A stretch of 64,000 nt of DNA from contig OZ219790.1 of the NCBI GenBank assembly GCA_964291215.2, forward strand, positions 1,504,001 to 1,568,000, read 5' to 3'. Within the stretch, counting starts at the first letter, position 1; every line of letters begins with the position of its first letter. The notes beneath the pieces were generated by a model that was not told where the DNA came from, did not search any database, and saw only the letters and a list, made by a program, of their open reading frames with translations. Positions 13,733 to 20,047 of this stretch are shown here, in pieces. The stretch is from Alphaproteobacteria bacterium (GTDB taxonomy: Bacteria > Pseudomonadota > Alphaproteobacteria > MPNO01 > UBA830). Made by a program: the position numbers and the translations under genes.

Positions 13733-14013
13733 ACTGATCACGAATCGTTTTTCCTGACGACGTTCGGATCAGGCATCTTCTCTTGCCACCTTCACTCGCT
13801 CGCTGCCGATGACCTATGCGGGCTCCGATTGGCAGGAACCGATCCGGTCTTCAGCCTCAGAGCTCCCTTTGCGGCCCGTAGGGACGGATCTGAAACGCGA
13901 TCTGCCAACCCCCGCGCCGACATCGCGTGTCGATCGTGCTGGCCGGTGGTGCATGTTCCGTTGGCTGCCTTTCCATTCCGCCGGAAATTTCCGTTTGACA
14001 CTATAGGAGGAAC

Positions 14014-14029
14014 GTATCTGCTCACCCCT
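14014..14029. repeat. Solo IS66-type terminal repeat abutting IS256
   Basis: GTATCTGCTCACCCCT matches the ends of the IS66 copies at 24457-25988 and 27823-29313. Confidence 0.6.
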
Positions 14030-14030
14030 C

Positions 14031-15075
14031 GATTACGCAACCTGATGTCTGGAAATTGTCGTGAAGCTGATCGAGCTGTTCCCATTTGATCTTGGTTTCG
14101 GTTTCCCATTTTTCGTCGATGAGGACTGCGGTTGAGAGGCGCTCCAACGAGGCGAGGTTCGGAAAGACCCTGACTTTGGAGGTGCGCCGCTTGAGTTCTT
14201 GCTGGATCGGTCGCTCGATGCCGTTCGAGGTTCACATACGTTTGCGGTGAGCATCGGGCAAGGTGAAGACATCGAGCCCCGCATTGTTTTCCAGCCAGGA
14301 AACCTGGACGCTTGTCGCGATAGCTGGCCACGAGGGCGCCCGGTTCAGCCTCGGCGGTTTGGAGTGAGGACGCATGGCTCCGAGCTGTTTTCCGATACGT
14401 TTCCTGATGTCGTTGTTCGGTGCACGGCGTTTTGTGCCAGGTGGAATTGGCAGCGCTGGCACCGCGCCGCTTTCAGCCCGGCATCCGAGACGATGAAGGT
14501 CGTACCATGCAGGCCACGGGCTTGCAAGCTTTCCAGGAAGGCCCTCCAATGGACCTCGGCCTCGGAGAGCGCCACAGAGAGCCCCGGAACGCGCCTGCAG
14601 CCCCTGTTCCGATGGCCGAGAGCACTGCAACATCGCGCACAACGCCGTCATGGCGGGCTTTTCCATAACGCGCATCCAGGTATTTCATCAGGGGCCGGTT
14701 GCGCGGCGAGTTCTTCGTCGAGCAACCTGGTGGCCCCCTGAGAAGAGGACAGGCTCCCGAACTCGCGCATTACATCCTGCCGTGTGGAAACACCCTTGAT
14801 GTACATCTCGGCTACGGCGCGAGAAGATCGCTGGCCGCGTTCAAGCGACTGGGGGGTCGTCCCCGTGACCGGCCGTCTTTGGCACCTGAACGGCAACAGC
14901 GGGGGTGTCGATCCGCTTGTAGCCGTTGGCATAGCCCTGTCGCTCCGGTGTCCGGTGGCCCGCTTTCAAGTACTGCTCGCGCTCGATTTGCATCGCAAGC
15001 TCGAAGAGCTGGCCAAAGACCCGCCCCGGATCCGTTGCTCCGTTTGCCACGGCGATCCCACGCCAGGTTTGTTGG
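14031..15075 (-). mobile_element. IS256-family transposase, degraded (left end probably displaced to about 19230-19257)
   Basis: Fragments LFELAMQIERE..L.A, GYANGYK, AEMYIKGVSTR, YLDARY.K.R.DGVVRD.AVL.AIG, SEAEVHWRAFLESLQARGL, QRCQFHLAQNA; end GATTACGCAACC at 14031. Confidence 0.85.
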
Positions 15076-16338
15076 AAGGGTCGGTTTCGCTTGTTCAGGA
15101 TGATTCGTATTTTCGCTGGCTTTTTGTGAAGCGGCGTAGTATCCGTTGTCGTGGGGGCAGCGGATTTTTTTGAGACGACTCCGGAGGGTTTTGAGCTCCG
15201 GGATGTGGTTGTGCGCCTTGCGCGGCCTGATGTCGCTGGAATCGTGTCGTTGACCGTATCTTGGTTTCAAGCAGTTTGCCGGTCGAGGTCTGCGCTACGT
15301 GTTCACCTGGCGCGGGCGGTGGATTGGTGCTGCGGGCTGGCAGACGGGCGCCCTCAGCTGCGCACCCGTTGGCTGGCGCCGCGAGGAACAGTTCAGGCGG
15401 TTGCCGGGAACAACACGAGGTTTGTTGTTTTTGGTGGTCGTTTCCGGGCCTTGCCTCGTTTGCGTTGTCGCGGATGGTGCGGCGGCGACCGGGAGGCTGC
15501 GTACGGCCATCCGTTGCTTGTTGCGGAGAAGTTTGTCTTGCCGACGAAGTTCAGCGGCACCATGTACAAGGCGGCGAACCGGGAGTGCGTTGGCGGGAGC
15601 CATGAGCGCGCCAGCGGGCGCCGACCGGGGAGGCGAAGGATCCTTACGTGTTTCCGCTGCGTTGTGACGCGGGATCGTTCGCCGCTTCCTGCGGCGTGGG
15701 AGTTGCGGGCGCCGCTGGTCGCGCAGGAGTTGCGCTCGATTTATCAGCGGCGCTTTCCGGCGCGGGGCACCGCATCGCCTCGGCACTGCGCGTGATGGCG
15801 CGGCTTGCGAACCGGCGCGGCGGCGCACTACGACGCAGAAGGAGCTGGAGCAGCGTGGAAGAACAGGGACAAGCCGGCCTCCACCGTGCACCGGGTGCTG
15901 CAGAACACCGACCCGGGATGGATCGAGGATGCGGCGCGCAGCCGCAGGTCGGCAACGCGGTCGACGGCAAGCGCGGCCGCACCGGCGAGGATCATTACGA
16001 GACGGTCTCGCTGGCCGGTATTCGATCCTCAACTGTCACGGCGGGGAGATCGCTGCCGTCCACGCCGCGCCGGCCGTCTGCTCACCCTCGATGCGCTCCA
16101 CACCACCCGCGAGGCTGACCATCGAGACCCATCGCGCGGACTGATGGTCAAGGGCAACGCACCTTCGAGAGAGCATCAACTGGAAGACCGCCAGCGCTAC
16201 AACGAAAAGCCCGCGCATGGCCGCCAGCGCACCATCTTCACCCCGCTGGCGAAGATGATCAACTATGTCAGGCAGATCTTCCGCGTCACCCGGCGCGTCG
16301 AATTCAGGAAATCCGGAAAACGCCATGACCTTATATGA

Positions 16339-17532
16339 CCCCCGTTCCATAGTGAAGTGCAACACATGATGGGCTGTGGCCATGTGTTTTTAGACGCATG
16401 ATGTTGCGGAGCTGTCCAGCAGCGGCGAAAGTTCCTGTACAAGATGGAGGGAGCTTGTTCATGTCCAAAGGCTACCGTCACCTACGAAGAGCGATGCCAG
16501 ATTGAGGCAGAAAAGCGGTCTTTCACAAGGTGCGATTGCTCGGCAGCTGGGCCGATCAACAATTTTCCGGGAGATCAAGCGCAACACCGGGGGACGGGGT
16601 TACCGTCACAAGCAGGCGCAAAGGATGGCAGAAACGCAGGGCCGCCTCGTCTGTTTCTTGGCGGTTGACGCCTCGGGCTGAAGCTCAGAAAAAGCTGCGG
16701 GAGGGCCCCGAGCAGATCAGCGGCCGTTTTCGACTGGAAGGCCGTGGGTCGGCAACGGATCCATGATCGCCGAAGATCGGAGAGCCGGGGGCGTCCTGTG
16801 GAAGAAGCTTCGGCGGCGCGGCAAGAAGCCGAACTGGAAGGGCGGATGCCATTCCGGCCGGGTGGACATTTCCGAGCGCCCTGCGGAGGCAAAGGAACGG
16901 ATCGGCGACTGGGAGCCATCATCGGCAAAGCTCACAGTGGAGCTGTCGTGTCGCTCGTGCCACGAAATACACCTTGCTGGGTGGACAGAAAGACACGGTC
17001 GGTATGAGCCGCCTGCTCGGCTCTGGTGCGCTATTGGTCCACACAATCACAACGGCAAGGAGTTCGCAGACCACAGGCGTGTCGCACTTGACGCAGACTT
17101 CTTCTTCGCCTTTCCATTCTTGGGAGCGCGGCTTGAATGAGCACACCAACGGCCTGGTGCGGGAGTACTTCCCGAAGGGCACGGACTTTCGCGCGACATG
17201 CAACGAAGATGTTCAGAAGGTGCGGCTCAACATTCGGAAAGTCCTGGGATCACCGACGGAGGTAATCTTGAAGTGAAACCGCCCTGACCATCTGCGCCAT
17301 GTTCCGAAGCCGCAACGTGCAGCAGGGTCCATGCCGCGCGACGGCGAAATAGTGGCTTGAAGCCGACAAAGGCGTTGCATAAGCTTGATGTTGAAGGAAC
17401 TGAAGCTGTTCCTAGGCGGAATCGAGAGGGGCAGAGGGGAAAAATTTGCGCAACACCCGGCCCTCATCTCCGTTCGGGCTACGCCCTCACTGCGATGAGG
17501 GCCGGGTGTTGCACTTCAGACTGGAAGTAAGG
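16339..17532 (+). mobile_element. IS30-family insertion sequence, frameshifted
   Basis: 27-bp imperfect IRs CCCCCGTTCCATAGTGAAGTGCAACAC / GTGTTGCACTTCAGACTGGAAGTAAGG; 3-bp TSD TGA (16336-16338, 17533-17535); TYEERCQIE, ISERPAEA..RIGDWE, NGKEFA, PFHSWERGLNEHTNGLVREYFPKGTDF. Confidence 0.92.
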
Positions 17533-17629
17533 TGACTAGGTTTTATCCCCTTGATGATGAAATCATCCACAGCAGTTGGGGGCGGGAAAATGTGGACAAC
17601 CCCGACTGTGGGAGAGCGTCCGGTCCATG

Positions 17630-17796
17630 GTTGCAGAGAGATTCCGCTCCCCTGAGCGAACACGCACAGGGGAGCAAACGATCTCCGCGGAGGTTGCCGT
17701 TTCGACCTTGACAGGGCCGTGTCCGAGTGTGGTCGGCCAACCTCCCTTGACGTCCCTCGCTGGATGCTTGAACCCGTATCATCACAAGGCGAGGAG
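17630..17796 (+). ncRNA. IS110 bridge RNA (5' stem-loop, target-binding loop, donor-binding loop)
   Basis: 5' hairpin GCTCCCCTG/CAGGGGAGC; target-loop stem GGAGGTTG (17689-17696)/CAACCTCC (17738-17745) enclosing TTTCGACCT and CCGAG; donor-loop stem CCTCGC/GCGAGG enclosing TGGATGCT and ACAAG; lies directly upstream of the recombinase ATG (17799). Confidence 0.8.
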
Positions 17797-17798
17797 CA

Positions 17799-18445
17799 AT
17801 GGTCAAGGTAGTAGCAGGAGTCAGCCAGTCTGGACATCTGGCGCATTGTTTTGCGAACGACGCCACGGGCTGGCGGGCAGGTGGCCTCGGGGTGAGCCGG
17901 GTGGTGGGCGACAGGCCGCTATCACCGCAAGGTTCACCAGTGTCTTCATGACCGGGGCTTCGAGGTTGTTCTCGTCAACCCGTTGCGGGCGCTTCGCCGA
18001 GGCGCCAACCGCGTCGACGCCAGGATCGGCACGGTGAGCCTGTGGCTCCTCAAGAGCCTAGAGGATCTCCTGGTGGCGCGCTTGTCGACGCCAGGCAGGT
18101 GAGGTGGATGACGAGACCGTCACAAGGGCCTCGGCGGCCGATCTCGATGATCGCCGGTGATCCCGAGCAGAGGTACGCCATCCTGACCTCGATCCGGTGA
18201 CCGCCGCGGCCCTTCCGGATGCCCGAACTCGGCAGCCTTGATCGGGGTGGCGCCGATGGCCACGGTGCCCGGCACATCCGTGGCGGGCAGGCCACGAGAT
18301 CTCCTGGCCGCAAGCTTCAACGCGGACCTGGTGCGCCTCAAGACCGCCGGCAAGCAAGGTCGCGATTGTCGCCGTGATGCGCAAGCTCTGGCGAACACCT
18401 TGCTGCGACAGCAGCGTTGCTTGTCGACCGAAGCACCGGTGAGTG
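17799..18445 (+). pseudogene. IS110 DEDD recombinase/transposase, heavily deleted (end approximate)
   Basis: RBS GAGGAG, MVKVVAGV..S, VVLVNP..RRFAEA, LIGVAPMA, FN......L..AGK, AVMRKL spread across frames. Confidence 0.75.
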
Positions 18446-18637
18446 AGCGAAGGAGACACGGCCCTGCCGAGAGCGCGACCGGGACTGTATCGACAGTCTC
18501 CCTACTACGACACGACTTGGGGAGAATGTCTGCAGATCATCGTCGAGGCCGACATCGAGGAGATCGAACCGCCTTGGGACACCTGGAACCCGGACGGTCA
18601 CGTGCCCGGGGACGGCAAGGTAGCCGCGTTCACGTGA
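18443..18637 (+). CDS. Small hypothetical passenger ORF in the IS110 right end
   Basis: 64-aa acidic/aromatic ORF (SPYYDTTWGECLQIIVEADIEEIEPPWDTWNPDG) between recombinase and right end; no recognised family. Confidence 0.35.
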   Translation: MSEGDTALPRARPGLYRQSPYYDTTWGECLQIIVEADIEEIEPPWDTWNPDGHVPGDGKVAAFT

Positions 18638-19360
18638 CCAATGGACGGCAACCCGCCGCCGGGACCACAAGCTTCATGCCGCCTCGCTCGCAGAGCAAAT
18701 CCCACACCGCTTGTGGACAACCACAGAAAACATCACCACAGACACCCGCAAAAACCTTGCCAGGAAACATGGATGCTCGGTCGAGCGCGCCTCGCCGCAA
18801 CAGTTGCTCGCATGGGATCGCGGACACTGGGTAGTCGAGAGCCATCATCATGTCCGCGACGCCACCTTCCGCGAAGACGACTCCATGCTCCGAACGCGCC
18901 CGCAAACAACGCGATCACCCTCGCAATCATCATCCACAACAAGCGCAGGCTGCGCAAACCCTTCAACAGCTTCCCACCATGCCGACAAGCGCAAGCAGGT
19001 CCTGCACGCAATCACAAGACCAGGCTGACCGCGCCTCTCTCCCCGACAGAAACCGCAAGCTTTCGAGCCCGGCAACCAAGGCCTCTCGCTCGCCCCGGAT
19101 ACGCCGACCAATCGCGCCCCGCGCCGCAACAGCGCGTCAGCAATCTCAAAATCGCAGCCTCGAACGCGTCGACCCGCGCCGCGATCAGGACTCCGATCAC
19201 GTCACATCAACAAGCATGGGATCACCTTGGTCCTGTCCGCGGGTCCGTTGCGTCTCCCCGGCACAGGAGATACGCTTTCCGGGAACGTTTCCGCCCGGGC
19301 CGCGAAGCGGACGGCGGGGACGGACGCCTGGCCGCGAAACGCGCCCGTGAGAGGAGCAGC

Positions 19361-20047
19361 ATGGTAGACGCCTTCGAGGACCATTGCTGGAAGGACATCG
19401 TTTCCGACGAGATCCTGAAAATCTACGAGCCCTACCGGCACGAGACCGCGGTCGGGGCGCGCCCGGCGCTGCTGGCGATCGATCTCTACAACCTGGTCTA
19501 TCAGGGCGGCGCCCGGGAACCGCACGACCTGGTCGGGACCTGGCCGAGCTCGTGCGGGCGCTACGCCTGGGAGGCGATGGAGCCGACGAAGCGGCTGTTC
19601 GCCGCCGCCCGCGCCGCCGGCCTGACGGTGCTCCACACCACGGCGCCAGCGTCGTCGCGCGTGGCCGCCACCAACCGCCAGGTCGGACTCGGCAGCAGCG
19701 ACGAGGATTACGGCATCTTTCACGAGTTCGCGCCCGAGGACGGCGATGTGCTCATCGTCAAGGAGCGGGCGAGCGGGTTCTACGGCACACCGCTTCTGCC
19801 CGAGCTTGCCCGGCGCGGCATCTTGAGCCTCATCGTCTGCGGCACCAGCACCTCGGGATGCGTGCGCGCATCGGTGGTCGACGCCTATTCGGCCGGCTTC
19901 CATGTTGCCATTGCCGAGGAATGCGTCTTCGACAGGTCGCCACTGTCGCACAAGGTCAACCTGTTCGACATGCACCGCAAATACGCCGACATGCTGCATA
20001 TCGACGAGATCCTGGAGCATCTCCTGGCGTCGAGACTTGCCGCGTGA
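19361..20047 (+). CDS. Isochorismatase/cysteine hydrolase family (N-carbamoylsarcosine or maleamate amidohydrolase-like)
   Basis: RBS GAGGAG, then MVDAFEDHCW; PALLAIDLY, KERASGFYGTPL, TSGCVRASVVDAYS (D-K-C triad). Confidence 0.9.
   Translation: MVDAFEDHCWKDIVSDEILKIYEPYRHETAVGARPALLAIDLYNLVYQGGAREPHDLVGTWPSSCGRYAWEAMEPTKRLFAAARAAGLTVLHTTAPASSRVAATNRQVGLGSSDEDYGIFHEFAPEDGDVLIVKERASGFYGTPLLPELARRGILSLIVCGTSTSGCVRASVVDAYSAGFHVAIAEECVFDRSPLSHKVNLFDMHRKYADMLHIDEILEHLLASRLAA

Follow-up and report, generated by a model that had tools for sequence, protein, structure and literature searches.

Bridge recombination is known from IS621, an IS110-family insertion sequence (IS) of Escherichia coli (Durrant et al., 2024, PMC11208160; Hiraizumi et al., 2024, PMC11208158), whose bridge RNA works in trans (PMC11208160) and whose target loop carries a G-U linker followed by a 7-nucleotide (nt) right guide (PMC11208158). 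Two further IS110 elements bear on the case described here: ISEc21, which is guided by its upstream non-coding region into a conserved stretch of the transposase gene of another IS family (IS3), and ISMch6, for which natural retargeting by guide substitutions has been reported (Siddiquee et al., 2024, PMC11187229). We analysed a 64,000-nt stretch of an alphaproteobacterial genome (assembly GCA_964291215.2, contig OZ219790.1, positions 1,504,001 to 1,568,000; hereafter the window), in which an initial annotation had placed an IS110 element with a bridge RNA at 16323..18785. The element belongs to IS110, is of the IS621 type, and has a bridge-RNA region and a CT core. It is probable that we see a decayed copy with a two-loop bridge RNA encoded in its left end, and that the mismatch between its guide and its site came about through sister copies, by insertion in trans or by recombination that overwrote the guides.

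The design of the element follows IS621 in most respects. Both have a DEDD RuvC and Tnp-serine recombinase of about 315–326 amino acids (aa) in which the five catalytic residues align, lack terminal inverted repeats, use a CT core, and hold in the left end a bridge RNA with 5′ stem-loops, a target loop and a donor loop. G-U linkers, a 7-nt right target guide ending in AG and a discontinuous right donor guide are further likenesses, with putative handshake dinucleotides and predicted promoter boxes split across both ends as candidate ones. Differences from IS621 are the distant protein (E = 2.6e-28), a left target guide that seems to lack one base (6 nt plus the core), a right donor guide that would fit with a 1-nt and not a 2-nt bulge, and intact elements of 1.76–1.97 kb that have palindromes and a passenger open reading frame (ORF) in their right end. 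Insertion is mostly into other IS elements and not into repetitive extragenic palindromic (REP) sequences, at least 16 guide pairs occur in one genome, and the window copy is dead. The family resembles ISEc21 in its choice of another IS family's transposase gene, but its proteins have the length (315–330 aa) of the IS492/IS621/Piv branch and not that of the ISEc21 cluster (345–385 aa; PMC11187229). The IS1111 group, defined by sub-terminal inverted repeats and a guide region downstream (PMC11187229), was considered and set aside, the guide loops here lying upstream of the ORF.

The ends were fixed by the other copies in the genome (6.15 Mb), which holds 64 left-end and 70 right-end matches. 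Most of these break at CT-TATATGA on the left and ATGGATG-CT on the right, against many unrelated flanks; they pair into 61 two-ended copies, leaving 3 left and 9 right ends unpaired. Intact left ends begin with CT-TATATGA, a few with TGTAT or TACAT. In the window, where all features given below lie on the forward strand, the breaks independently place the ends at the CT cores read earlier at 16330–31 and 18776–77. The left target arm CCATGAC (16323–16329) lies inside an ISAs1-family transposase remnant (NF033564 match) and has the same letters in empty ISAs1 copies. It is followed by the left CT core (16330–16331), a single CT in empty sites, and by the start of the IS110 left end, the right donor arm TATATGA (16332–16338), which is common to intact left ends and supplies most of a predicted −10 box. 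On the other side, the left donor arm ATGGATG with the right CT core (18769–18777) is followed by the right target arm CGGTC (18778–18782), again within the ISAs1 remnant. The right flank of ISAs1 has 44 matches in the genome, 21 filled and 23 empty, and most of the empty sites read CCATGAC-CT-CGG with a single CT; empty copies also exist for six other repeated host elements, and comparison of filled with empty hosts reveals no target duplication beyond the core. Insertion is thus scarless at one CT, as the initial annotation had proposed, since empty host copies carry one CT at the site. All 21 filled ISAs1 copies keep CGGT against 10 of the 23 empty ones (p = 2.6e-5), a difference on which we do not rely because the empty variant stems from one shared deletion next to the junction. 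No inverted pair joining both IS110 ends occurs among the 25 longest of the 65 listed.

Across the copies of this genome and across relatives elsewhere, the loop sequences predict the insertion sites. Position by position, the match rate is high from −4 to −1 and from +1 to +5, falls to a middle level at −5 and +6, and at −7 and +7 is hardly better than chance; because of these outer positions a layout of 9-nt left and 9-nt right guides was dropped. As these rates fit the IS621 arrangement of a G-U linker and then a 7-nt right guide, guides were scored at 6 + 5 = 11 programmable positions. They are readable in 60 of the 61 copies and form 16 distinct pairs, to which one truncated copy adds another. 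Forty-four of the 60 could be scored (13 lack a recoverable left arm and 3 have disturbed junctions), giving 26 unique guide–site pairs with a mean of 8.23/11, against 6.45 ± 0.29 after permutation (reached in 0 of 100,000 permutations). Starting from one recombinase homologue, we recovered 31 loci in Alphaproteobacteria assemblies, 24 of them with both ends and the same design as the window element. The 22 scorable loci provide 17 unique pairs with a mean of 8.41/11 against 4.68 ± 0.50 permuted, and with one row per guide (n = 7) a single permutation in 5,040 reaches the observed value.

Repeated targets lie mostly inside multi-copy IS elements (ISAs1, IS1634 and unnamed repeats). The guide TCCGTC/CGGGA, present in 18 copies, is found at IS1634 and other CGGGA sites, TTTGAC/CGGTC at the ISAs1 type of the window, TTTCAC/CGCTC at a second ISAs1, and TTTGAC/CGATC at a third repeat. 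Nearly all genome copies share one donor junction despite the 16 guide pairs. Literature searches listed no paper on several bridge-RNA guides in one genome, which does not in itself show absence from print, and it is possible that the clade already figures in the large IS110 tables of PMC11208160.

Within the left non-coding end, the motifs on which the initial annotation had built its two-loop, IS621-type bridge RNA are all present (GACCT at 17704–08, CCGAG at 17723–27, TGGATGCT at 17761–68 and ACAAG at 17784–88), and the model itself is supported. The predicted fold of 17533–17798 has a hairpin at the 5′ side and then two stems, each opened by internal loops (z −3.1; the intact relative's fold reaches z −5.2). 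A covariance model built from 11 relatives only recovers 17685–17801 with 57.9 bits (E = 6e-11), and elsewhere in the window its scores do not rise above noise; a scan of 15500–19500 against Rfam gave 0 matches at E ≤ 1. In the alignment, 94.8% of cells are paired, with 13 compensatory cells (0 of 500 shuffles), in a structure drawn from the same sequences that scored it, and the pair support is fair, not strong.

The remaining left non-coding end with the 5′ stem-loop region (17533–17688) has one 14-nt deletion and leads into the target-binding loop module (17689–17745), which has lost GTCGGA from its outer stem, including an invariant bulged A, as well as 5 nt of the inner stem-loop. Position-wise match rates, covariation and the IS621 linker layout place the left target guide TTCGACCT (6 nt plus core) at 17701–17708, with the T at 17700 probably serving as linker. 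The right target guide had been given as the five bases CCGAG; it is longer, GTCCGAG (17721–27), reads CT-CGGAC (core plus 5 nt), and is followed by TG (together 17721–17729), the putative handshake dinucleotide of the target loop. In the donor-binding loop module (17755–17799), an 8-nt deletion takes the outer stem and the first guide base, and a 6-nt deletion shortens the inner stem. Comparison with the intact relative L035 thereby bears out the shortened donor stem noted in the initial annotation, which had left the 6-nt and 5-nt deletions of the target loop unmentioned. The left donor guide remnant TGGATGCT (17761–17768) reads ATGGATGC in undeleted copies, and the right donor guide TCAT-C-ACAAG with handshake GC (17779–17790) would fit with one bulged base. 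Donor guides and rejoined ends do match, as had been claimed, apart from one mismatch and the missing first base in this copy. Relatives show one change in concert, with ATAAG beside TATAT (L035–37/L056) and ACAAG or GCAAG beside TGTAT in the others; the window copy has ACAAG, which suits the TGTAT donor found in most relatives and not its own TATAT. The putative donor-loop handshake follows the base before the core in part: G occurs with C in 48 genome copies and A with T in L028, L038 and L078, but A with C in L032 and two genome copies. A 60-nt insertion in the left non-coding end of relative L027 (1220–1290) lies upstream of the bridge RNA.

The recombinase gene (17799–18440, 3′ limit approximate) is broken by many frameshifting deletions. 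Of its catalytic codons, D9, E51 and S232 are struck, D93 reads AAC beside a deletion, and D96 is kept; none of the 58 aligned genome copies keeps all five. The window copy is a pseudogene of an IS621-type family, and the lost catalytic codons do not point to another one. Its own fragment matches PF01548 at E = 0.017 and no other family, and both PF01548 and PF02371 are found in fragments of genome copies as well as in intact relatives. A fragment from one genome copy retrieved 654 homologues, the best being 315-aa proteins with PF01548 and PF02371 and up to 83% identity. The protein of relative L035 passes NF033542 (202.6 bits against a cut-off of 140), the closest solved structure to protein P0002 is IS621 with D11/E60/D102/D105/S241 aligned, and the five catalytic residues are invariant in 21 aligned intact relatives. 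No intact recombinase of the family was found in the assembly. Two intact 430-aa IS110 genes were considered as helpers and rejected, as they belong to another subgroup and the RNA model found no match with them. A DNA search of 60 taxonomic relatives yielded no copy of the element and only three matches of 32–39 nt, a protein search of 25 yielded one 54%-identical IS110 (G001) and weak matches, and a pattern scan of metagenomes yielded one locus with the right end only.

The loops are real, but the site of this copy is not the best match of its guides, so that the heading of the initial annotation, guides that match the insertion site, is not supported as worded; the annotation had itself flagged a left-guide match of only 5/9. 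The window copy predicts TTCGAC-CT-CGGAC, which class-B sites (CTCGAC-CT-CGGAC) fit at 10/11, or 11 with wobble. Its own ISAs1 site, CATGAC-CT-CGGTC, fits at 7/11 (8 with wobble), and the best guide for that site is the sister TTTGAC/CGGTC (9/11). Such non-cognate pairing is widespread. Among the 44 scorable copies, only 26 hold the guide that, of all those available, best suits their own site, and the CGGAC guide is present in 10 of the 19 copies whose right arm reads CGGTC. The left end of the window copy is closest to copies with the class-B guide. Copies are mosaics, with all four combinations of left and right target guide present and four-gamete incompatibility of single-nucleotide polymorphism (SNP) pairs rising from 0.13 at 1–25 nt to 0.31 beyond 800 nt. 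Two other copies deserve mention. One at C2:3385609–3387052 has its left flank from one host repeat and its right flank from another, likely a rearrangement by recombination between two IS110 copies; a second (C1:2111783–2112916) sits in a gene of another IS110 subgroup, at a site that its own guide TTCGAC/CGGTC fits at 10/11.

By analogy with IS621, the ends would join as ATGGATG-CT-TATATGA, the donor loop would pair with this junction, the target loop (6 nt + CT + 5 nt) would select the insertion site, and the 315-aa DEDD/serine recombinase would exchange strands at CT. Joining would also create TTGCCA-17 nt-TATGAC, a candidate bridge-RNA promoter built across the circle junction, whose predicted −35 box TTGCCA lies at 18757–18762; the layout is kept in the five relatives compared, with TTGCAG in one. 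The donor is shared, the bridge RNA acts in trans (PMC11208160), and in vitro IS621 can be excised with no more than its donor arms (10.64898/2026.08.31.748434), so that a recombinase, whichever guide variant it is loaded with, could capture and place the circle of any copy. On this reading the target loop of the family branched into at least 16 guide pairs, after which the copies decayed by 5–7 nt deletions, probably spread by recombination between them. The first 30 bp of the left end have been struck repeatedly by other IS (four times by IS30, plus others; examples at C1:1705003, C1:2485186, C2:1496759, C2:868408, C2:1140060 and C2:409873), which uncouples or destroys the predicted junction promoter.

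Decay was measured by counting deletions over the leading 1,590 nt, with the intact relative L035 as reference. Each of the 58 aligned copies has 24–45 of them (41 in the window copy), and of 163 distinct deletions 78 measure 5–7 nt and only 17 measure 1–4 nt. Those of 5–7 nt mostly lie outside homopolymers, with microhomology close to random. A 5–7 nt indel peak recurs in IS110, IS30, ISAs1 and IS256-like repeats (five query stretches from four IS families, window 14000–19100), with a trough at 2–4 nt and a weaker second peak at 11–14 nt; bacterial pseudogenes, by contrast, have been described as following a power law of indel sizes (PMC6054270). Multi-copy families are eroded while low-copy IS ORFs are intact, and the peak may be either a real, repeat-linked erosion or an assembly fault. 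End-joining is not favoured as its source, as Ku was not found in the genome and microhomology is near expectation. MutS, which repairs loops only up to about 4 nt, is present, and as a lead this limit would fit the lower cut-off of deletion sizes. GTCGGA is lost from the target-loop stem in all 58 full copies and kept in one left-only truncated copy. The truncated copy L078 (C1:1319400–1320150) has the full target loop and retains the catalytic D9 and E51 codons; its guide TTCCGT agrees with its own left flank, and the base A at its donor-loop handshake position suits the T that precedes the core. In one other assembly, a frameshifting deletion of 7 nt in the DEDD D93 region is common to the seven copies that were fully recovered (L046–L051, L057), which nevertheless occupy five different sites; it is possibly an early stage of the same erosion.

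That the loop matches arose by chance, with target choice left to the protein, is hardly credible. Single 5-nt motif pairs are indeed common in shuffled sequence, the target pair appearing in 467 of 20,000 dinucleotide shuffles of 17533–17798 (the donor pair in 13), and Rfam gave no match, but both loops together appeared in none, and the seven independent guides of relatives, whose recombinases are 83–93% identical to P0002, each predict their own sites; the covariation already refutes the idea unless the loci are mis-assembled. It is very improbable that the copy's own bridge RNA inserted it here, tolerating four mismatches, with the guide unchanged since. The core-proximal GAC-CT-CGG matches at 6/6, the same guide is carried by 3 of the 9 ISAs1-site copies with a readable left arm, and imperfect sites (7–8/14) occur among relatives too; against this stand the better fits of this guide to class-B sites and of the sister guide to this site, the mosaic nature of the copies, and the strong preference of IS621 for perfect matches and its poor tolerance of double mismatches (PMC11208160). 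The mismatch was likely acquired through sisters, either in a trans insertion by a sister's bridge RNA or when later recombination overwrote the guide region. Several points nevertheless weigh against this account. Trans insertion and later gene conversion would both account for the pattern, a score of 7/11 (8 with wobble) is still high enough for the own guide to have made the insertion, and some relatives sit at sites with similarly low scores. The permutation figures overstate the covariation, because the copies are kin and composite ISAs1::IS110 units may have multiplied together, and nine copies share one left-junction deletion. Only 4 of the 32 bridge-RNA pairs change on both sides, a count that 333 of 500 shuffles reach. 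The assembly does not contain the rejoined circle junction, an absence that would be natural if the circle is episomal. Finally, the 6-nt target-loop deletion is present in every full copy, yet guides still track sites, which implies either conversion that spared guide bases 3–4 nt away or a loop that works without GTCGGA.

The latter option, on which the idea of a guide library is based, holds that the shortened loop, without GTCGGA and often without its partner TCGGC, stayed functional, that guides were retargeted or shuffled afterwards, and that dead copies serve as a library for a helper recombinase. We regard it as unlikely. It would account for a deletion shared by all target classes, for the 32 copies that have lost the partner strand too and so form a clean shorter stem, for near-identical dead copies (4–6 SNPs apart) in different hosts, and for the TTCGAC/CGGTC combination at the unique site ATCGAC-CT-CGGTC (fit 10/11). 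Yet the lost stretch includes an A that all 11 of 11 relatives keep and that may correspond to the flipped-out As that the recombinase binds in the IS621 loops (PMC11208158); homoplasy is higher for deletions than for SNPs, which a spread after insertion would explain; the full loop survives in one truncated copy; and no helper recombinase was found. Carried further, the about 60 recombinase-dead copies with one donor would be a recombining guide library in which the short loop is active, guides are swapped, any copy can be mobilised by any sister, and the 96-aa passenger protein binds the right-end palindromes and regulates excision or the junction promoter, a picture we consider decidedly doubtful. 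The deletions and guide mosaicism could also be in part assembly faults, from repeats polished with each other's reads, so that in the cell the copy would be less damaged and more cognate. The damage is concentrated in high-copy repeats next to intact low-copy ORFs (two 430-aa IS110 genes and IS1634 frames of 563 and 571 aa), and the closest pair of copies differs by 2 SNPs but 7 deletions. Such faults would hardly give sizes with so sharp a peak, mostly without homopolymers or microhomology, nor deletions that follow sub-lineages (an 8-nt donor-loop deletion in 15 of 19 class-A and 0 of 14 class-E copies); a 7-nt deletion common to all recovered copies marks another assembly while others are intact, and the guide–target link among relatives is independent of this genome. 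We therefore give an assembly origin only a small chance, and keep to a decayed, bridge-RNA-encoding IS110 whose guides were probably mismatched through its sisters.

Downstream of the recombinase, all five relatives compared carry a 96-codon passenger ORF with its own ribosome site (2478–2765 in L035). The window retains a remnant (18449–18582, limits approximate) with the ribosome site kept and the start codon and about half of the gene deleted, followed by two degenerate 12-bp palindromes of the GGTAACGTTACC type (18596–18607 and 18628–18639). One to four such palindromes lie downstream of the ORF in the right end of 23 of the 24 relatives. The protein has 1,415 homologues without a Pfam family; comparison of the ORF with Pfam, NCBIfam and PHROG brought up nothing at E < 0.02, no plasmid matched it, and in 400 other genomes of the phylum it has only 2 weak matches (E about 7e-4). 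Its predicted model (pLDDT 87) consists of helices only, with a best VIA Z of 6.4, no viral match at E ≤ 0.001 and no clear structural match. Homologues occur away from any IS110 in four viral contigs, in three of them with a similar palindrome just upstream and in one directly after IS21 istB. The association of gene and palindromes, together with a basic N-terminal helix, suggests that the protein may bind the right-end palindromes.

The locus is a nest of elements. The initial annotation had taken 16323..18785 as a single element; its bounds stand, but 1,194 of the 2,463 bases belong to an IS30-family insert that had been missed, and it was silent on the element being a pseudogene split by this insert. 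The IS30-family element (16339–17532), itself decayed, was delimited by its inverted repeats (16345–16365/17506–17526), by comparison with 28 other copies and by NF033563 matches. Its insertion point, seven bases inside the left end of IS110, is marked by a TGA duplication of 3 bp, and the insert puts 1.2 kb between the predicted junction promoter and the bridge RNA. A hairpin with 30-bp arms lies just inside its right end (17450–17512). The decayed ISAs1-family host interrupted by IS110 lies at 15800–19230, the left figure being nominal and the right end near 19230; it is recognised at C1:1522747–1522899, and homology among filled ISAs1 copies stops about 453 bp right of the core. Upstream of the transposase, the host appears to start with a decayed extra gene (window 15200–15800), which may be DUF4338/DruA-like, judging from its motifs. 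Pfam searches of 128 host-element frames named only the ISAs1-associated PF13808, the DruA-like PF14236 and neighbouring IS fragments, and gave no name to the hosts of target classes B, D, G and H.

The mechanism is already known, and published work on ISEc21 and ISMch6 covers both insertion into other IS genes and natural retargeting. The published retargeting concerns two elements with 72% protein identity (PMC11187229), whereas the copies here are about 94% alike within one genome. In exceeding 1.5 kb and carrying an extra gene, the family resembles cargo-bearing IS110 elements (Hu et al., 2026, 10.64898/2026.08.14.744561), but its cargo is one small conserved ORF fixed across the clade and not plasmid-derived adaptive cargo as described there. 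What goes beyond the known type is the 16 guide pairs with one donor, the conserved passenger gene with its palindromes, and the 5–7 nt deletion peak in four IS families. A passenger gene with a candidate operator is found inside an IS621-type element, and the intact natural relatives (315 aa, with seven further guides and matched sites) are candidate bridge recombinases. The genome offers a snapshot of natural guide reprogramming, with near-identical elements that share one donor and carry at least 16 target guides, so that the routes of guide diversification—point change, swap between copies and use in trans—become directly testable.

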